Position numbers and translations under genes: made by a program | Part shown: piece by piece, positions 27,190 to 54,576 of the stretch | Layout of the letters: each line of letters starts with the position of its first letter | Numbering within the stretch: the first letter of the stretch is position 1 | Assembly: GCA_944372425.1 (NCBI GenBank) | Contig: CALVZC010000006.1 | Location: 202 to 64,201 of the forward strand | Direction of reading: 5' to 3' | DNA length: 64,000 nt | Origin: an uncultured Bacilli bacterium | GTDB taxonomy: Bacteria; Bacillota_I; Bacilli_A; RF39; UBA660 | Notes under the pieces: generated by a model | Told to the model about the DNA's origin: nothing | Databases searched by the model: none | Seen by the model: the letters and a program-made list of their open reading frames with translations, nothing else

Positions 27190-27705
27190 ATGAGTAACAG
27201 AGATAAAAAAAATATTATGATTGTAGCTCTTTTAATAGCAGTTGTTTTTATGTCAGTAGGATATGCATTATTATCAACAAAATTAGACGTTCAGGGGACT
27301 TCAACAATAGTTGATCCAGTTTGGGATGTAGGAATTATATCAATAAGTGAAAATTCTACAGAAGGCTATGCTAATAGTTTAAATTCAACAGTTATTAATA
27401 AATTTTCAGCAAAATTTAATGTTGAATTGCAAATGCCAAATGATAAAGTCACATATACAATTAATGTCAAAAATGAGGGGACAATTGATGCTAAACTTAA
27501 TTCTATATCGATAATGCCAGAAGATTACAATGAGGGATTTATAAAATATGAAATAGAAGGAATAAAAGCAGGGGAAGTATTATCAGTAGGAGAAAGTAAA
27601 ACTTTCACTTTATCTGTTATGTATAACAGTGATGCAACTGGTCAGCCACAAGAAGAAGACTTAACTAAAGAAATTAGTTTAATACTTGATTATATCCAAA
27701 AATAA
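27190..27705 (+). CDS. Small secreted protein with a TasA/SipW-type signal region (cassette 1 cargo)
   Basis: 171 aa. N-terminal K-rich n-region, h-region, then GYALLSTKLDVQGTSTI. TasA-like PNDKVTYTINVKNEGTIDA strand motif. Confidence 0.75.
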   Translation: MSNRDKKNIMIVALLIAVVFMSVGYALLSTKLDVQGTSTIVDPVWDVGIISISENSTEGYANSLNSTVINKFSAKFNVELQMPNDKVTYTINVKNEGTIDAKLNSISIMPEDYNEGFIKYEIEGIKAGEVLSVGESKTFTLSVMYNSDATGQPQEEDLTKEISLILDYIQK

Positions 27706-27731
27706 GTAATTTATTATAAGTTACTTTTTTT
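27704..27731 (+). terminator. Weak hairpin plus T-run after the cassette 1 cargo gene (possible attenuator)
   Basis: aagtaa/ttactt 6-bp stem, 11-nt loop, T7. Confidence 0.3.
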
Positions 27732-27771
27732 ACTTTATTATTGTTTGTAATAAAAAAATAATGGAGGATTT

Positions 27772-28917
27772 ATGAAAAATAAAAGAATTATACTTTTATA
27801 TTTAATGTTATTTGTATATATTACAATAAACAATTTAATGATGCAGTCTAAATTTGTTTATTATAATTCAGTAATAATTTCTCCATTTTTATTGTTTGTA
27901 ATAACCATAATTGCATATTTCTTATTGCCAACAGCTCAAAAAAGAATTAAATATAAATATGAAAAAAATCAAAACGTTATTATAATAATTTTTTTATATC
28001 TAATTATTTATTTTATTTCTGGATTAATTTTCGGCTATTCATATTCTATATATAGTAAAGACTTATTGACTTTAATAAAAAATATATATAGTGTATCAAT
28101 TATTATAGTTTTAAGTGAATATATAAGAAATAAATTAGTAGTCAATAGTAGTGATAATTATATAAATAATGTACTAATTTCAATAGCTTTAATTTTGATT
28201 ACTTTTAATTTTTCTTATTTTTTTAGAAATATTTATCCTTTTTCAGTAGGATTTAAGTATATAGCATCACAAATTATTCCTAATTTGGTAATAAGCTTTA
28301 CTTTAACTTATCTTTCAAGAAAATGTGGATTGATTTCAACTTTAATTTGTAATTTATCTCTTGGTTTAATTGCAATAATTTTACCAATTTTACCTAATAT
28401 ATCTTGGATAATATTATCAATATTAAAAATAGTCTTAGCAATGTTTCTTTATTTTAACATTAATTATTTTGAATTAATGTATGATAGAAAATATCATCGA
28501 TATTTACTTAATAAGAATACGAAATCAACAACGATTTTGTTTATTATAGTAATAATATTAATTATGTTTATTTTAAAATTTTTTAAATATTATCCAATTT
28601 CTATCTTATCAGATAGTATGAAAAATACTTTTTCTCGTGGTGATATAGCAATTATCGAAAAATTAGATAGAGATTATATTGAAGAAATTCAAGTTAATGA
28701 TATAATTTATTATAAGAAAAATAATAAATTAATAATACATCGTATTGTAAATATTGAAATAATTAACAACAGAATAGTAATAACAACTAAAGGTGATAAT
28801 AATGATGATATTGATCCATGGAAAGTATATGAAGAAGAAATTGTCGGAATAGTTAAAGGGAAAATACCTTTTCTTGGATATCCAGCAGTATGGCTTAACG
28901 AAGCATTTAACGATTAG
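27772..28917 (+). CDS. Polytopic membrane domain fused to an ER/archaeal-type (SipW-like) signal peptidase I
   Basis: 381 aa. About 8 TM segments over the first ~270 aa, then the S26 motifs SDSM (Ser), IHRIV (His rather than Lys), GDNN..D. Confidence 0.8.
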   Translation: MKNKRIILLYLMLFVYITINNLMMQSKFVYYNSVIISPFLLFVITIIAYFLLPTAQKRIKYKYEKNQNVIIIIFLYLIIYFISGLIFGYSYSIYSKDLLTLIKNIYSVSIIIVLSEYIRNKLVVNSSDNYINNVLISIALILITFNFSYFFRNIYPFSVGFKYIASQIIPNLVISFTLTYLSRKCGLISTLICNLSLGLIAIILPILPNISWIILSILKIVLAMFLYFNINYFELMYDRKYHRYLLNKNTKSTTILFIIVIILIMFILKFFKYYPISILSDSMKNTFSRGDIAIIEKLDRDYIEEIQVNDIIYYKKNNKLIIHRIVNIEIINNRIVITTKGDNNDDIDPWKVYEEEIVGIVKGKIPFLGYPAVWLNEAFND

Positions 28918-28925
28918 GAGGAACT

Positions 28926-29999
28926 ATGAAAAATAAAGAGAAAGAAGTTTTAAAAAAGACAGTAATTAGAAGCTCTCTTTTATTAATATCCATTTTTTCT
29001 TTAATATTTGGAATATTAATAACTATTGAAGGAATAACAAACAACAAAGAAGAAAAAGAGGAATTAATTAGTTATGAATCAAACGGTAATATTGATTATC
29101 AGATAAGTTTAAAAGAAAATGATTTTTATAATATTGAAAATACAAATTACAAAAATATAATAGGAAAATATATTGATAATATAAATTTAAGATTTAACTA
29201 TGAATTTTCAGCATCAAATTTATTAAATTCTGAAGTTAAATATTCTTTAAAACTATATTTAGTAAGTGAATATACTGCAAATAATAAAAAAGAAGAAATA
29301 TGGAAACAAGAATATGAACTAATTCCTGAAACAGAAGAATTAAATATTAATAGTGGTATAGTTACGATATCTAAAGATATTACTTTTAATTATGACGAAT
29401 ATAATGAAATAGCTAAGAAGGTAAGATCAGAATCTGGTGTATTAACTGATTCTTACATAAAAGTAGAGTTTATTGTTAATAACAAGTTAGAATTGATAGA
29501 AAAAGATATGAATTTTAACGATAATCATACATTAGTAGCAAAAATATCACTACTAGATAATATTGTAACGTTTGAAAAGATAAATGAATACAATAATAAA
29601 GAAACATTGTATAATACTATTTCTGAAAATGCAAATTATCCATTATTAATAACAGGAATATGTTTATTACTAGTATCATTATTATTATTAATTCAGTCAT
29701 TAAAAATGTTTATAAACACTAGTGCAGAATCAAAATACATAATAGAACAAAATAAAATTTTAAAAAGATATGGTGATGTTATTGCAGAGACATCGACAAA
29801 GCCAAATTTAGAGGATACTAATATAATTGAGATAACTAATTTTATTGATATGATTAATATAGAAGATGAGCTTAGAATACCAATTTTATTTTATGAAAGC
29901 ATAAAAGGAAAAGAATCATGGTTTATTATTATTAACAATAATAAGGCATATAGATATATATTAAAAATAAAATTAAAACGAAAAAGTAATGTAAGTTAG
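28926..29999 (+). CDS. Bitopic membrane protein, cassette 1 third gene (possibly DUF5305-like)
   Basis: 357 aa. TM1 near residue 20, an ~200-aa external domain, TM2 near residue 245, and a ~95-aa cytoplasmic tail. Paralog of 50138..51244. Confidence 0.7.
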   Translation: MKNKEKEVLKKTVIRSSLLLISIFSLIFGILITIEGITNNKEEKEELISYESNGNIDYQISLKENDFYNIENTNYKNIIGKYIDNINLRFNYEFSASNLLNSEVKYSLKLYLVSEYTANNKKEEIWKQEYELIPETEELNINSGIVTISKDITFNYDEYNEIAKKVRSESGVLTDSYIKVEFIVNNKLELIEKDMNFNDNHTLVAKISLLDNIVTFEKINEYNNKETLYNTISENANYPLLITGICLLLVSLLLLIQSLKMFINTSAESKYIIEQNKILKRYGDVIAETSTKPNLEDTNIIEITNFIDMINIEDELRIPILFYESIKGKESWFIIINNNKAYRYILKIKLKRKSNVS

Positions 30000-30244
30000 A
30001 AATATAAAAAGGAAAAAAATAGCGTAAAAAAACAAAAGACAAAACAAATGCTCAAATATAAATATTTTAATTTTGTTTCATATTTTAGTAATAATGAATT
30101 ATTTATTGATAGTTTTTCATTTTATATGGTATTTTCATATTTTTCTTTTTATATATGGAAACCTTAATTTTGATCTTTGTTGTTTTATAATTAAACTAAG
30201 TACGTAAGTAAAAATATATTTAATAATAGGATATTTTGTTTATG

Positions 30245-30275
30245 CCAATTGCAAATATTTGTAATTGGATTTTTT
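30245..30275 (+). terminator. Intrinsic terminator
   Basis: ccaattgcaaa/tttgtaattgg stem (1 mismatch) plus a T-run. Confidence 0.5.
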
Positions 30276-30374
30276 ATAATAATTATTAATGTTTGCAAAA
30301 CACATTTATTTGATTTATTTCTTTTGATTTGATACAATTAACTTGTATTTATATACAATTAGAGGTGATTATTA

Positions 30375-48996: not shown

Positions 48997-50130
48997 ATGA
49001 AACAAAGTGAAAAAAATATATTAATTATTGAATTTATTTTTATGGCAATACTTATTTTAAATGCTTTCTTATTTAGAATTGAAAATACTATTCTGATAAG
49101 TATTTTTCTGTTGATTTTTTTAATAATATCTATTGAAGTTTTGGGTTATGAAAAAGATAGACATCGCTATAAAAAAGATGGTATTTTACTTGGGATTATT
49201 TTTGCATCAGGTTTTCAAATATTTATATATTTATTAGGGCTTATAACAGGATTCTTAGAAAATGGATATAGCTTAAAACTAATTAATATTTTTAGAAATA
49301 CTTTACCAAATTTAATACTAATAATAATAACAGAATTATTTCGTTACCAACTTATAACAAAAAGTCAGAAAAGAAAATCATTAAAACTATTAACTACAAT
49401 ATTATTTATTGTGTTAGATATTGTTATTATGATTCCTTTGTATAACTTATATGATTCTAGAAATTTTATTGAGTTTTTATCTATTATTGTTATTCCAAGT
49501 ATCTCAAAAAATATATTATTTACTTATTTTATATTAAAATTTGGATATTTAACTAATATATGCTATAGAGTAATAATGGAACTAACAATTTATATAGTTC
49601 CTATTTTACCGAATATTAATATTTATTTAGATTCAGTTTTTAAGTTTACTTTTCCAATTATTATATTAATGTGTTTACAAAAAATATTAAACGAAAAAAA
49701 GGATATAGAAGTAAGAAAACCTAAAATTTTAAAAATAGTTGATGTCTTTGTTACTTTATTTTTGTTAATTGTTGTATTTTTAACTAGTGGTATTTTTAGT
49801 CATTATGCACTAGTAATAGGATCAGATTCAATGAATCCAAACATAAATAAAGGAGATATAGTTATTGTTAAAAAAATTAAATCTGAGCAAATTGAAAATA
49901 TTGAAGTTGGAGATATTTTAGTATTCAACATGAGAAACAAAGTAGTAGTACACAGAGTACAGAAAATAAATGATAATAATAACAGGATATCGTTTATAAC
50001 AAAAGGTGATAACAATATTGATGTAGATAATTGGGTTGTTAACGAAAATGATGTTATAGGTATAGTAACTGCAAAAATACCAATAGTTGGTTATCCTACT
50101 GTATGGTTAAATGAAATGATAGGAGGATGA
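48997..50130 (+). CDS. Polytopic membrane domain fused to an ER/archaeal-type (SipW-like) signal peptidase I
   Basis: 377 aa. About 8 TM segments, then GSDSMNP, VVHRVQ, TKGDNNIDVDNW. Paralog of 27772..28917. Confidence 0.8.
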   Translation: MKQSEKNILIIEFIFMAILILNAFLFRIENTILISIFLLIFLIISIEVLGYEKDRHRYKKDGILLGIIFASGFQIFIYLLGLITGFLENGYSLKLINIFRNTLPNLILIIITELFRYQLITKSQKRKSLKLLTTILFIVLDIVIMIPLYNLYDSRNFIEFLSIIVIPSISKNILFTYFILKFGYLTNICYRVIMELTIYIVPILPNINIYLDSVFKFTFPIIILMCLQKILNEKKDIEVRKPKILKIVDVFVTLFLLIVVFLTSGIFSHYALVIGSDSMNPNINKGDIVIVKKIKSEQIENIEVGDILVFNMRNKVVVHRVQKINDNNNRISFITKGDNNIDVDNWVVNENDVIGIVTAKIPIVGYPTVWLNEMIGG

Positions 50131-50137
50131 AAATAGA

Positions 50138-51244
50138 ATGAGTGATGAGAAGAACATAAAAAATAGTAATCTTTACCAATCTTTTACAAAGAGAAAAAAA
50201 AGAAGTCGCGCAATAATGTTAATTCTTTTATTAATATCTTTGTTCTTAATTATATTATCTTCTGTATTTTTAAAATCATCAATGAATTTTAAAGATAACT
50301 TTATCAATTATAATGAAAAAGGAGATATTAATTATAAAGTATATTTAAAAGATAATGATTATTATGATGAACCATTTTTAGATAAGGGCATGCAATACAT
50401 TGCAAGTTTAATTAATACTATAAATGTTGACTTTAAATATGAAATTAATTCTTCTGATGAATTATCTTATAAATATAAATATAAAATAACTGGTGATTTA
50501 GTAATAACTGAAAAAAATAATCCTAGCAAGGTTTTGTACAAGAATACGGAAATTTTATTAGAAGAAACTGCAAAAGAGATAACTGATAGTTCATTTGTTA
50601 TTAACGAAGATTTAGATATTAATTATGATAAATATAATGAATATGTTGTTGCATTTCAAAAGGATTATTCTTTGAGTGTCGACAGTAATTTAGTGTTGAC
50701 TTTAGCAGTTGAAACTGTTGGAGAGAACAATATATTAGTTAATAATTTTAATAAAAATAGTAATTTAATTGTTTCTGTTCCTTTATCAGAACATACAATA
50801 AGTATTACAACTGATTTAAATTCACTTAATGGATCAGGAATAATTAGAAGCACTGAAATTGTTAAAATAGATAATGTAATGTTATTCGTTTTAAGTATAT
50901 CTTTAGGATTAATTGGTTTAATAATTCTTATATCTATTGTTTATCTTTATCTATCAAAAAATAATAATAACAATCTTTATGAAAAAGAAATAAAGAATAT
51001 TCTTAAAAACTATGATCGTTTAATTGTTAGTAGTAAAGTATTAGATATAGATGAAAATAAATTTCAAAATAAAGTTCGTGTTACAAGTATTGAAGAACTT
51101 ATTGATGTATATGAAACTACAAAGCAACCGATTATTTATTATGAAGTTATTCCAAATGAAAAAAGTTATTTTATAATTATAAATGATGATACATTATATA
51201 AATTAACAATATCAAAAGAATGGTTAGAAGAAAATAAAAAATAA
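50138..51244 (+). CDS. Bitopic membrane protein, cassette 2 third gene (possibly DUF5305-like)
   Basis: 368 aa. Same architecture and shared motifs as 28926..29999. Confidence 0.7.
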   Translation: MSDEKNIKNSNLYQSFTKRKKRSRAIMLILLLISLFLIILSSVFLKSSMNFKDNFINYNEKGDINYKVYLKDNDYYDEPFLDKGMQYIASLINTINVDFKYEINSSDELSYKYKYKITGDLVITEKNNPSKVLYKNTEILLEETAKEITDSSFVINEDLDINYDKYNEYVVAFQKDYSLSVDSNLVLTLAVETVGENNILVNNFNKNSNLIVSVPLSEHTISITTDLNSLNGSGIIRSTEIVKIDNVMLFVLSISLGLIGLIILISIVYLYLSKNNNNNLYEKEIKNILKNYDRLIVSSKVLDIDENKFQNKVRVTSIEELIDVYETTKQPIIYYEVIPNEKSYFIIINDDTLYKLTISKEWLEENKK

Positions 51245-51292: not shown

Positions 51293-51426
51293 CAATAGTA
51301 AATCCTATCATACAATAAAATGACATGTGTATATAAAATACTCATGCTTTTAAATTTTCTAATATAGCTTGCTATAAATATTAGAATATAGTAAAATTTA
51401 ACTATAAAATAGAAAGAAGGTAAAAA

Positions 51427-51483
51427 ATGGGATTTAGGAATACAAACAAATATTCGAGTGGGGGGGGGGGGACACTTTACTAA
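51427..51483 (+). other. 18-codon upstream ORF containing the G12 tract
   Basis: AGAAGG RBS plus ATG. MGFRNTNKYSSGGGGTLY, then a stop. Confidence 0.35.
51460..51471 (+). repeat. Homopolymeric G12 tract
   Basis: 12 consecutive G by hand count, in an otherwise very AT-rich intergenic region. Confidence 0.95.
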
Positions 51484-51603
51484 ATTAGAAGCCTTTACCT
51501 TAAAAGATAAAATAGGTTTAATCATAATATTAAAAGAAATAATGACAATATTCATATATGAAATAAGAAATAAATTGATATATGAAAGGCGTGAAGTAAT
51601 ATT

Positions 51604-52986
51604 ATGATAAAACCAAAAATAATGTTTTTAATAACAATAACAATTTTAGGATTATCAATAGGATATGGAGCTTTTAATGCTGAATTATCGATAAGTGGAG
51701 AAGCAACAGTTAATGGTCAGAGATATAAAGAAGAAATATTAAATGGAACAGAACCGAAGTTAGAAGAACCATTAATAGCAGTAACAATAGAAGATGATGG
51801 AACAGTAAAGAAAGCAGATTTAACAAGTAAGTGGTATAGTTATGAAGAAAAAAGATGGGCAAATGCAGTAATATTAAAAAATGAAAATAAAGAATATGTT
51901 AGTGGAGAAATAATACCAGAAGAAGAAATAGAGAGTTATTTTGTATGGATACCGAAGTATAGTTATAAGTTATGGGATTTAGGAAATTATACAGATTGGA
52001 CAGAAATAGATGAAAATAAAGTACATGCAATAGAAATAAGATTTGGGACAACAAATACTACTGATAGTGTTTCTGGAGAATGTACAACACCAGGAATATC
52101 AGGAGAGAGTGGAAACTGTGAAGTAGGAGATTACATGACCCATCCAGCTTTTTTAGCATTTAATACAACAGGGATGTGGGTAGGAAAGTTTGAAACAGGA
52201 TATAGTGGAGCAACAAGTGTAAGTGAAGCAGAAAAGAACACAACAGAAGTAGATAAAGTAATAGTAAAACCGAATGTATATAGTTGGAGAAGTATACAAT
52301 TATCCAATGCCTTTACAGTAAGTTATAATTATAAAAGAGAGTTAGAATCCCATATGATGAAGAATACTGAATGGGGAGCAGTAGCCTATTTATCACATTC
52401 TATATATGGAATAAATTATGAAATAAGAATAAATAATAATTCTAATTTTTTAACAGGATATGCAGCAACAACAGAAAACGGAAGTGGAAGTACAACAGAT
52501 GTAGCAATGTGGAACACACCTACAGGTTATTTAGCGAGTACAACAGGAAATATAACAGGGATATATGATATGTCAGGAGGATCAGAAGAACATGTAATGG
52601 GAGTAATGAAAGATGCAAATGGGAATTTAATGTCAGGTTATGATTCTACTTCTAATTCAGGATTTAATGGAACATTATATGATGGAAGTAGTATAACAAA
52701 TGGAATAGATTTTCCAGATAGTAAATATTATGATGTTTATAATTACAATAAAAGCCATACTAATTATTCACGAAGAATATTAGGGGATGCAACAGGAGAG
52801 ATGGGACCATTTGATTATGTATCATCATGGTATAATGATAATGCATCTTTCGTTTATCCTTTATCCCCTTGGTTCGACCGTGGGGGCCACTATTTCGATC
52901 GTTCTGGAGCTGGTGCGTTCTTTTTCGACTACTACTACGGGCATGCTTACAGAACCATTTCTTTCCGTTTGGTTTTGTGCATATAG
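51604..52986 (+). CDS. Secreted protein with a SipW-type signal region and a C-terminal FGE/C-type-lectin-like domain
   Basis: 460 aa. IGYGAFNAELSISGEATV after the h-region. GIYDMSGG, RGG and SFRLV motifs, typical of the FGE-sulfatase / CLec fold. Confidence 0.75.
   Translation: MIKPKIMFLITITILGLSIGYGAFNAELSISGEATVNGQRYKEEILNGTEPKLEEPLIAVTIEDDGTVKKADLTSKWYSYEEKRWANAVILKNENKEYVSGEIIPEEEIESYFVWIPKYSYKLWDLGNYTDWTEIDENKVHAIEIRFGTTNTTDSVSGECTTPGISGESGNCEVGDYMTHPAFLAFNTTGMWVGKFETGYSGATSVSEAEKNTTEVDKVIVKPNVYSWRSIQLSNAFTVSYNYKRELESHMMKNTEWGAVAYLSHSIYGINYEIRINNNSNFLTGYAATTENGSGSTTDVAMWNTPTGYLASTTGNITGIYDMSGGSEEHVMGVMKDANGNLMSGYDSTSNSGFNGTLYDGSSITNGIDFPDSKYYDVYNYNKSHTNYSRRILGDATGEMGPFDYVSSWYNDNASFVYPLSPWFDRGGHYFDRSGAGAFFFDYYYGHAYRTISFRLVLCI
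52848..52980 (+). other. Adenine-depleted, GC-rich 3' coding tract (candidate DGR variable region)
   Basis: Over 52861-52980 I count 16 A of 120 nt and about 59 G+C, against roughly 45-50% A just upstream. Encodes HYFD...FFFDYYYGHAY. Confidence 0.45.
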
Positions 52987-53006
52987 TTTTTCCACTTGTG
53001 GAAAAA
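52987..53006 (+). other. Hairpin immediately after the stop codon
   Basis: tttttcca(c)/(g)tggaaaaa, an 8-9 bp stem with a 2-4 nt loop. Confidence 0.6.
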
Positions 53007-53086
53007 CTTAACCCTGATCTTTGTGGTTTAATGAATAAACAAAGTATATAGATAGACAGATTTAATAGTAGAAGAATATTTTAATT

Positions 53087-53121
53087 ATGCCGATTGCGTG
53101 CGTTTGCAATCGGCATTTTTA
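53087..53121. terminator. GC-rich terminator between convergent genes
   Basis: atgccgattgc/gcaatcggcat 11-bp stem plus T-run. Confidence 0.75.
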
Positions 53122-54576
53122 TTTTATTTTTTTAATACTAGTTTCTTTAGTATTTTCTTTTTCATATCCTGTTATATCTTCTAACATTTTGTACTGAAAT
53201 GCTAAATCAATACATTTATGAATTATTTCATCTCTATCCCATGCATATCTAGTAGAATCAATCATTTTTTTACCATTAGGTAATATTATACTTTTTTGTT
53301 TTCCGTTAGTGATTATTCTTTCTTTTTGATTACTATCTATAAATGTCATTCTATTATGACTTCTATTACTTAATAATGAAAAATTAATATTATTTATTGG
53401 GTCTACAGTTAATTGTGTTCCACTCCATCCAGCTATTGCAAAACTTTTACCGCTTAGTGAATGATGCACTTCACCACTATTAGGCAGTGGGTGTTTTGAA
53501 TAACATAACATTGCTAAATATTGTGAATACTTATCTTTTCCATCATCAGTTACATAGTGAAAACCACATCTATTTTTTGCCATGTAATCTCTTGTGTTAA
53601 AATTTATAATTTTGTTATCTATTAATGCTCTTGCAAGTTTTGTCATATCACTTGAATTAGAAAATAGACCAGCATGACCACTTAGTATTCCTTGTGGTTG
53701 ACCTAATATTCTTGCTTTATCATCAGTTGATACTCCAACAGGTGATGTTGTTCTTATTAGGTAATTTCCATCTTTATAGTATCTTCCGTCATAATTTGAA
53801 TTTGCAACATTTTCTAAATTTTCCTCTGGTATTTTAACAAATGTATTATACATTCCTAAATTATTTAGAATATTTTTAGAAAGATATTCGTAATAAGACA
53901 TTCCACTTGCACTTTCAATTACGTATTTTAATACCATAGGTGCAAAGTCGTTGTATTTATTTGCTCCATATGGTATTTCTTTTTTTGAAGTAGTAAATAA
54001 AATTTCTTCTGCTTCTTTTACATCTTTTGCTTTATCAATTCTTGTTTTTGTTTCAAGTGGTTCAAATGTTAATAAATCAAAAATAGTAATACCTTTTAGG
54101 TTTTCAAATTGTGGTGCATATTCTGTTACGTCTTCTGATAAATCTATTTTTCCTTCTTCAACTAATTTAAGTATAGTAATTGCTGTAAATAGTTTTGTAC
54201 ATGATGCTAAGTCAAAGATAGTATCATGATTCATTTCTTTTTGACTAGGAATAAAAGTCCCTTCATCTAGAATAGTTTCTTCACGATTTCCAATAACTAA
54301 TTGTTCTTGAAATGTTTTAGTACCATAGGAAATTACAGCACCTGGAGCCATTTTTTTTATATAAAAAAAATCTTTTAATAAATCTTCTATTCCAGACTTT
54401 TTATAAAGTTCATTACGTAATTCATCAATATTTGCATCTTTATGTTTATTAAGTACTTCCAAAACATCTTTTAATAGTCTTTCATATTGTTCTTTTGGAT
54501 ATAGATTCTTTTGTGTTTCATCTGCTCCAATATTTTGATTTTTTATTAATTGATTAAGATAATCATTATAACTCAT
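53119..54576 (-). CDS. Beta-lactamase-fold serine hydrolase (class C / esterase family VIII-like), apparently cytoplasmic
   Basis: 485 aa. SxxK motif SCTK and a YxN-like KYND. No signal peptide. Confidence 0.7.
   Translation of the reverse strand: MSYNDYLNQLIKNQNIGADETQKNLYPKEQYERLLKDVLEVLNKHKDANIDELRNELYKKSGIEDLLKDFFYIKKMAPGAVISYGTKTFQEQLVIGNREETILDEGTFIPSQKEMNHDTIFDLASCTKLFTAITILKLVEEGKIDLSEDVTEYAPQFENLKGITIFDLLTFEPLETKTRIDKAKDVKEAEEILFTTSKKEIPYGANKYNDFAPMVLKYVIESASGMSYYEYLSKNILNNLGMYNTFVKIPEENLENVANSNYDGRYYKDGNYLIRTTSPVGVSTDDKARILGQPQGILSGHAGLFSNSSDMTKLARALIDNKIINFNTRDYMAKNRCGFHYVTDDGKDKYSQYLAMLCYSKHPLPNSGEVHHSLSGKSFAIAGWSGTQLTVDPINNINFSLLSNRSHNRMTFIDSNQKERIITNGKQKSIILPNGKKMIDSTRYAWDRDEIIHKCIDLAFQYKMLEDITGYEKENTKETSIKKIK

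Follow-up and report, generated by a model that had tools for sequence, protein, structure and literature searches.

The 3' end of a gene in a 64-kb stretch of DNA from an uncultured Bacilli bacterium (contig CALVZC010000006.1; this entire stretch is hereafter referred to as the window) is very likely a variable region (VR; 52848–52983, forward strand) that is rewritten by a diversity-generating retroelement (DGR). The gene itself (51604–52986, forward strand) is an open reading frame (ORF) for a 460-amino acid, secreted or surface protein with an N-terminal hydrophobic signal/anchor and a C-terminal domain resembling C-type lectins (CLec) and formylglycine-generating enzymes (FGE), in which the VR resides. 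It is a DGR target gene as judged from the adenine bias of the differences between template repeat (TR) and VR, the fold of its product, its 3' elements and the variability of the codons that correspond to TR adenines, and the accessory protein Avd is encoded in related genomes. A preliminary description of the window had proposed a DGR variable region at this position, and the matching TRs, the adenine-biased mismatches, the fold and the hairpin conserved in relatives and paralogues, all described below, bear out that proposal.

The region is conspicuous in its composition. The 120-nt segment at 52861–52980 comprises 16 A, 45 T, 30 C and 29 G (13% A and 49% G+C), and our recount agrees with the 16 A and ∼49% G+C given in the preliminary description. 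The whole window contains 39.5% A and 25.7% G+C, and the part of the target gene upstream of 52848 contains 42.7% A; the earlier estimates were ∼27% G+C for the window and 45–50% A for the upstream coding sequence, the latter being slightly high. Among all 120-nt segments of the 64 kb, the highest G+C (59/120) falls in this patch, and a count lower than 16 A in 120 nt occurs only at ∼43769 (14 A). Two alternative-frame ORFs (52787–53011 and 52869–53051) are open across the patch because A is scarce there and all three stop codons (TAA, TAG and TGA) need A, an explanation that had already been suggested. The VR occupies the last ∼45 codons of the gene, and the protein ends in ISFRLVLCI, in agreement with the conserved FRLV-type terminus claimed previously; SFRLVLC is part of the scaffold shared by the homologues.

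In principle, the abrupt shift in composition and the ORFs in both alternative frames could also stem from an artefact of assembly, from DNA of foreign origin or from an overlapping element that is non-coding. We regard such an origin as extremely improbable, because the patch is in frame, its scaffold residues are conserved in thousands of homologues and it belongs to a confidently modelled domain. Furthermore, no Rfam family matched the G+C-rich patch, and the open frames follow from the scarcity of A.

Template repeats and adenine bias

The preliminary description had stated that the window contains no template, accessory gene or reverse transcriptase (RT), and our analysis agrees. A scan of both strands of the 64 kb, in which any mismatch was allowed at target adenines, found no TR-like copy and yielded only A-rich chance matches, and tblastn detected no homologues of RT, Avd or MutS-like proteins in the window (best E = 0.6). 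A guess at the TR was constructed from three VR DNA sequences by placing AAC at varying sites, and one genome per species was scanned with it. Two loci matched, both of which are DGR cassettes in uncultured Bacilli genomes; L003 comes from OZ006981.1, a closed 1.31-Mb genome registered as 'uncultured Bacilli'. The predicted repeat, with mismatches at adenines and located near a DGR RT, was thus found in related genomes.

Mismatches between VRs and the TR were counted over the first 108 nt with the TR of a cassette in a related genome (L005) as the reference; the TRs compared with the window VR come from other strains or species. The window VR shows 16 mismatches at A and 7 at non-A sites (p = 4.3e-6), matching the TR at 70 of the 77 non-A sites. 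Over the 100 nt starting from CCTTGGTTC, 12 of 15 mismatches fall at TR adenines (p = 2.6e-6). The part that matches the TR well is the core at 52866–52962, and the 5' edge (52848–52865) matches poorly in the window copy. The AAC codons of the TR are replaced in the window by GAC, CAC, TTC, GAC, TAC (four times) and ACC. The VR at the same locus in a sister strain (L011) has 16 mismatches at A and 2 at non-A sites (p = 6.5e-9), and those of paralogues have 16 and 0 (L010_0; p = 5.9e-11), 15 and 1 (L002; p = 4.6e-9) and 16 and 7 (L001; p = 4.3e-6). In addition, a cognate VR/TR pair is present on contig L008, where the two repeats are separated by 360 nt. They differ at 17 of 140 positions, and all 17 mismatches are located at TR adenines, of which there are 30 (p = 3.8e-14).

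In the mechanism that we propose, a non-coding TR of ∼135 nt located elsewhere in the genome would be transcribed together with the downstream spacer. The DGR RT, its bAvd partner and a small MutS-domain-I protein would copy the TR into cDNA with misincorporation opposite template adenines, and the cDNA would replace the VR of any gene in which a matching 3' end, similar to the initiation of mutagenic homing (IMH) sequence, is followed by a hairpin. The scaffold codons of the TR would have to be adenine-free to escape mutagenesis, and the 12 AAC codons would be randomised on copying. The A-poor and G+C-rich nature of the VR in a genome of 26% G+C would be explained by these two features, namely the A-free scaffold codons and the randomised AAC codons. 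The coding capacity of the TR is ∼5.3e17 protein variants, and no substitution of its adenines yields a stop codon. The rewritten residues would line the ligand-binding face of the C-terminal CLec/FGE-fold domain in a secreted protein, and this protein would probably be processed by the adjacent SipW-type signal peptidase, the presumed route of its export.

The cassettes of L003 and L005 share the order of target-gene tail/terminator, TR, MutS_I ORF, bAvd and RT. The L003 TR is ∼135 nt long and non-coding, reads FVNSSNPWFNRGGNYNNGSGAGAFYFNNNNGHANSNISFRLVLCI when translated in the VR frame, and is followed by a spacer of ∼200 nt, a 127-amino acid MutS-domain-I ORF, a 118-amino acid bAvd (PF22296, 64.5 bits; cutoff 40) and a 342-amino acid RT with the motifs IGNYTSQ and YMDD. 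Genes for bAvd are likewise present in L005, L007, L008 and L009, and RVT_1 domains with IGNYTSQ and YMDD were found in the relatives L003, L004, L005, L008 and L009. The L005 RT is 92% identical to that of L003 and is encoded in the same arrangement, which is also seen in the L008 and L009 cassettes (RT, 68% identical); L004 is a more distant relative and has no MutS-like gene.

In each cassette, a protein of 127–147 amino acids with MutS domain I, which is a mismatch-binding domain, is encoded between the TR spacer and bAvd (L003 7160–7543, reverse strand; L005 524–910; L008 1353–1739; L009 287–730). Accessory proteins of this class are known as 'MSL' (Wu et al. 2018, PMC5758913). The ∼200-nt spacer that separates the TR from the MutS-like gene (L005 320–520; L008 1150–1350; L003 7745–7545, reverse strand) is conserved between cassettes even though their RTs are only 68% identical (e.g. 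...TTTACGGATTATAATTTTG...GTAGAAATCTAATTCCTTTTCAG...), and is probably the portion of the DGR RNA that priming requires. A T-rich stretch upstream of the TR was also considered as an extension of the VR homology and was rejected, as it did not align.

Fold and variability of the target protein

Searches of Pfam and NCBIfam with the window protein returned no hit, and a look-up of its exact sequence found no recorded protein. Databases contain ∼8000 homologues of the protein, almost all of which derive from gut metagenome assemblies of uncultured Bacilli. When 30 close homologues were aligned, their identity to the window protein was 82–92% in the first ∼400 amino acids and 42–68% in the last 57. 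The variation in the C-terminal part occurs in discrete columns on an invariant scaffold (SSWY..FV...PWF.RGG......AG.F.F....G......SFRLVLC.). In 73 homologues with a conserved register, the column entropy was 0.56 bits at A-free TR codons, 2.28 bits at codons with one A and 2.95 bits at those with two A (Mann–Whitney p = 2.7e-7). Thus, the hypervariability anticipated for the VR codons is indeed concentrated on the codons whose TR counterparts contain A, but variation between strains is not confined to the VR, as the whole gene is divergent (see the next section).

A first AlphaFold model, built for the full-length protein with 71 close homologues, was unusable (pLDDT 44) and was replaced by a model of residues 100–460 based on 133 more diverse sequences (pLDDT 84.6, pTM 0.88). 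The best matches of this model in the Protein Data Bank (PDB), as determined by Foldseek, were two DGR variable proteins, TaqVP (5VF4, bioRxiv 10.1101/432187; E = 2.4e-8, probability 1.0) and then Mtd of Bordetella phage BPP-1 (1YU0; E = 7e-4), and further matches included FGEs, PvdO and Treponema TvpA (2Y3C). These matches support the lectin (CLec/FGE) fold put forward in the preliminary description. A sequence-profile search of the PDB was marginal, with TaqVP as the sole match (E = 0.2, followed by E = 1.2). The FGE-sulfatase family (PF03781) did not reach the gathering threshold with the window protein, and sub-threshold matches to it were obtained with 17 of 71 family members (best E = 4.4e-4). 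On the strength of the model, the relationship of the target protein to FGE is structural and does not amount to a family assignment.

Neither the target protein nor the TR pattern was present in viral contigs, and thus nothing points to an element carried by a phage. A scan of JGI metagenomes for the pattern shared by the VR and TR gave no hits; the target family was seen mainly in ENA and Logan assemblies.

3' elements, dispersed targets and strain divergence

The 3' end of the VR is a conserved IMH-like segment (52957–52983, forward strand) with two VR-specific residues, T52968 and T52974, which are C and C/G, respectively, in the TRs. VR 3' ends read CCGTTTGGTTTTGTG or CCGTTTAGT(C/T)TTGGG, with T at both VR-specific sites, and the counterpart in the L003 and L005 TRs reads CCGCTTGGT(G/C)TTGTG. 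By analogy with Bordetella phage BPP-1, these VR and TR ends may be labelled an IMH/IMH* pair. The VR is followed by an inverted repeat (52985–53008, forward strand) that can form a hairpin or cruciform with a 10-bp stem (52985–52994/52999–53008) and a 4-nt loop (CTTG). It begins in the stop codon, taking in its AG; the hairpin of 8–9 bp reported earlier directly after the stop codon is therefore present, but it is longer and starts within the codon. As DNA, the hairpin has a folding energy of −8.2 kcal/mol (z = −4.5), and none of 200 shuffled sequences folds as well.

A post-stop hairpin is present in every paralogue examined (window, L001, L002, L008, L010 and L012), although the L012 copy is damaged. 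The 3' flank of the TR is homologous (TATAGTTTTT...CTTAA), yet it carries an insertion of 10–13 nt and lacks the 14–15 nt that form the hairpin. Such a restriction of the hairpin and the IMH-like differences to VRs would be expected if VRs alone act as recipients. Homing in BPP-1 requires the IMH and a downstream hairpin/cruciform with a 4-nt loop, and inverted repeats resembling that of BPP-1 lie 4–34 bp after other VRs (PMC3240598). By comparison with this phage, the hairpin described here may function in target recognition.

Each VR examined is followed by the hairpin, a conserved tail of ∼80 nt and a terminator with a conserved stem. In the window, the tail is a 3' untranslated segment (53009–53086, forward strand) that is common to paralogues located in unrelated genome contexts, and the intrinsic terminator (53087–53125, forward strand; GCCGATTGC...GCAATCGGC and then a T run) ends the conserved unit. 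The unit shared by paralogues, as defined by blastn, extends from ∼250 nt before the ATG to the terminator (51354–53156 in the window). The stem sequence of the terminator also recurs in the cassettes, where it lies just before the TR.

Paralogues of the target gene are dispersed in the genomes of relatives. Two of them are located 430 kb apart on one 1.0-Mb contig, in the gaps between rpoC and rpsL and between sigE and murG, and two others are located 9 kb apart on a second contig (L010), while each cassette adjoins yet another paralogue. This distribution indicates that service in trans is the norm for the target family. DGRs with remote targets have precedents (Wu et al. 2018, PMC5758913), and service of the window copy in trans is plausible. 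Paralogues of the pilin type (see the next section) are inserted singly between housekeeping genes, each with its own terminator, in genomes of ∼1.0–1.3 Mb; these include L001 10001–11836 (rpoC/rpsL), L012 6001–7821 (sigE/murG) and L010 1189–3021 (upstream of yabP/yabQ).

The absence of a cassette from the 64 kb raises the question of whether the window VR is a relic, once written by a DGR, that now undergoes ordinary evolution because the cassette was lost or the copy is no longer recognised. The seven non-A mismatches and the poorly matching 5' edge are compatible with this, and decayed VRs do exist in the family, namely L010_1 (L010 11260–11389; 31 non-A mismatches to the TR, G+C 0.38) and L012 (7690–7818; 22 non-A mismatches, G+C 0.42), both of which show synonymous drift to A/T codons. 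A target-less remnant of the conserved 3' tail at 30159–30293 of the window also points in this direction. However, the G+C content of the window VR (0.47, TR-like) and its 70/77 identity at non-A sites resemble those of clean VRs and not those of the decayed ones (G+C 0.38–0.42, 22–31 non-A mismatches). The window copy also retains an intact hairpin and an intact IMH-like end, and G+C-rich codons would be expected to erode quickly in a genome of 26% G+C. We therefore consider a relic unlikely. Because the G+C content, the non-A identity and the intact hairpin agree with the clean class, we judge that the window VR was recently written and, with a somewhat better than even chance, is still served; the genome of the window organism would then contain a cassette of its own that acts in trans. 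Contig L010 carries both kinds, its decayed VR being separated by 9 kb from a paralogue whose VR is perfect, with mismatches only at A.

The sister-strain locus (L011) is 97.96% identical to the window over 11.4 kb. Of the 235 differences between the two, 157 are located in the 1383-nt target gene (window 51604–52986 versus L011 24–1409), corresponding to a divergence of 11.4% in the gene versus 0.78% outside it, and the low divergence continues over 10 kb downstream. The codon differences outside the VR comprise 52 synonymous and 40 non-synonymous ones. Within the TR-homologous part, the window and L011 differ at 23 sites, 15 of which are adenines in the TR. The target gene is a mosaic in which several segments are closer to L002, a paralogue at a different locus. 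This mosaic, whole-gene divergence shows that recombination among paralogues also shapes the target gene and the VR difference at this locus, and suggests that recombination or gene conversion is frequent within the target family.

Could such exchange between paralogues, with no retrohoming, account for the C-terminal variability, the composition simply reflecting a preference for Gly, Tyr, Phe and Ser? The contrast between the 11.4% divergence of the whole gene and the 0.78% outside it, in strains that are ∼99% identical in the flanks, and the mosaicism relative to a paralogue at another locus are what recombination would produce. Recombination leaves unexplained, however, why the mismatches fall at the adenines of a non-coding TR (17/17 in L008 and 16/16 in L010_0) and why an RT, Avd and MSL cassette lies beside that TR. 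As the sole cause it is largely refuted, and we assign it a very low probability.

Several observations weigh against the identification of the patch as the VR of a DGR target. The window itself carries no TR, RT, Avd or MSL gene, and the TRs used for comparison belong to other strains or species. In the window copy, 7 of the 23 mismatches are at non-adenine sites of the TR, and T is the last base of two codons (TAT and GAT) that stand opposite AAC in the TR. The hairpin is AT-rich with a CTTG loop, unlike the GC-rich stem and GRNA loop of phage DGR hairpins (PMC3240598), and the non-VR part of the gene is ∼10% divergent between the window and L011. Regarding the non-A mismatches, five of the seven are clustered within the first 13 nt (TAT CCT TTA TCC in the window versus AAC TCT AGC AAC in the TR), and some differences of this kind are expected because the TRs are from other strains.

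Upstream genes, known systems and implications

The promoter and leader of the 460-amino acid target type (51354–51603, forward strand) are conserved, with 90% identity to L002. They include a short leader ORF (51427–51483, forward strand) that has a good ribosome-binding site and lies ∼130 nt before the ATG of the target gene. This ORF contains a G12 tract (51460–51471), which is the sole run of at least eight G in the window (0.03 expected) and is represented by G10 in L002 (9860–9869) and L010 (9860–9869). Judging from its sequence, the tract may be prone to slippage and serve in phase variation or attenuation. A frameshift at this tract into a longer N-terminal extension was considered and rejected, as G12 plus A and G10 both bring the leader ORF to one and the same TAA, which leaves no simple fusion in or out of frame.

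Two genes precede the leader (48997–51244, forward strand). The first (48997–50130) codes for a fusion between a multi-pass membrane protein and a signal peptidase I of the archaeal/SipW type (TIGR02228, 93.6 bits, cutoff 51.85; it also matches S24/S26 in Pfam), and the second (50138–51244) encodes a protein with a Pfam match to DUF5305. From their adjacency, the two products probably take part in the processing and display of the target protein. With regard to SipW-dependent (TasA/camelysin-type) secreted proteins, no NCBIfam model matched the N-terminus of the target protein, whose GAFNAE sequence may resemble AAFND. The prepilin motif (TIGR02532/PF07963) is absent from the window protein, and a type IV prepilin N-terminus is found in paralogues of 590–612 amino acids (e.g. 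P0060, 29.2 bits; cutoff 16.3). The same lectin module is thus carried on two types of N-terminus, that of the prepilin-motif paralogues and that of the window type beside the SipW-type peptidase.

A second SipW-type operon is present in the window at 27190–30293. It consists of genes for a 171-amino acid secreted protein (27190–27705), a peptidase fusion (27772–28917) and a DUF5305 paralogue (28926–29999), followed at 30159–30293 by a degenerate copy (∼72% identity) of the 3' tail and terminator of the target gene. Neither a target gene nor a VR precedes this copy, which may have been left behind as a scar when a target gene was lost.

The system resembles that of Bordetella phage BPP-1 (Mtd/TR/Avd/bRT) in the adenine-specific transfer from an AAC-rich TR to the VR, the position of the VR in the final ∼45 codons for a protein with a C-type-lectin fold (with Mtd as a structural match), the combination of bAvd with an RT carrying an IGxxxSQ motif, and the inverted repeat with a 4-nt loop beside the stop codon. 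It differs in being chromosomal, in the order TR–MSL–Avd–RT and in having several dispersed targets; moreover, its hairpin is AT-rich with a CTTG loop, and a (GC)14 element is not evident. The Treponema denticola DGR (TvpA; PMC5758913) is likewise cellular, with several FGE/CLec-fold targets far from the RT, but it has an HRDC accessory protein and lipoprotein targets instead of MSL plus Avd and SipW-type or type IV pilin N-termini. DGRs with MSL and Avd ('architecture D', e.g. the Legionella DGR) have already been described (Wu et al. 2018, PMC5758913); the Legionella type shares the small MutS-domain-I accessory protein alongside Avd, whereas the host here is a small-genome, low-G+C gut Bacilli bacterium and the target family is different. 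Thermus aquaticus TaqVP, the best structural match, has the motif H-M-x-N-x-E-W-x-A-V-A in common with the target protein, but the identity is only 15%, the TM-score is ∼0.4, and the two proteins differ in their N-terminal parts and in organism. Finally, the DGRs of Bacteroides type V pilus tip adhesins (bioRxiv 10.1101/2024.11.15.621889) also diversify a pilus-associated binding module in a gut bacterium; those pili are of type V and belong to a different phylum, whereas the paralogues here are type IV pilin-like and the window copy has no pilin domain. A search for links between DGRs and prepilin- or SipW-type targets found no paper in the library covered.

Taken together, these data allow a broader interpretation that we offer tentatively, as it is rather doubtful that all of its parts hold at once. 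One chromosomal DGR would serve a dispersed family in trans, with three stacked mechanisms of variation and two display systems. The mechanisms would be rewriting of the protein tip by the DGR, mosaic recombination between paralogues, and on/off switching of individual copies by the poly-G tract in the leader ORF. The units, each comprising promoter, gene, hairpin, 3' tail and terminator, would be self-contained between housekeeping genes in genomes of ∼1.0–1.3 Mb, and the lectin module would be displayed on type IV pilin-like and SipW-processed systems.

Our analysis indicates that an anomaly in composition recognised by eye can locate a DGR target even though the retroelement lies out of view. 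To our knowledge, the determinants of trans-targeting have been experimentally defined only for the Bordetella phage element, and the coexistence of intact and decayed VRs, with or without a perfect hairpin, provides a comparative handle on them. The finding also points to a large protein family, represented by thousands of homologues, whose members are lectin-fold surface proteins diversified by DGRs in uncultured gut Bacilli with reduced genomes. Contact with hosts or other microbes is probably essential for such bacteria, and a repertoire of ∼5e17 variants on pilin-like and SipW-type scaffolds would be a plausible way for them to match changing ligands.

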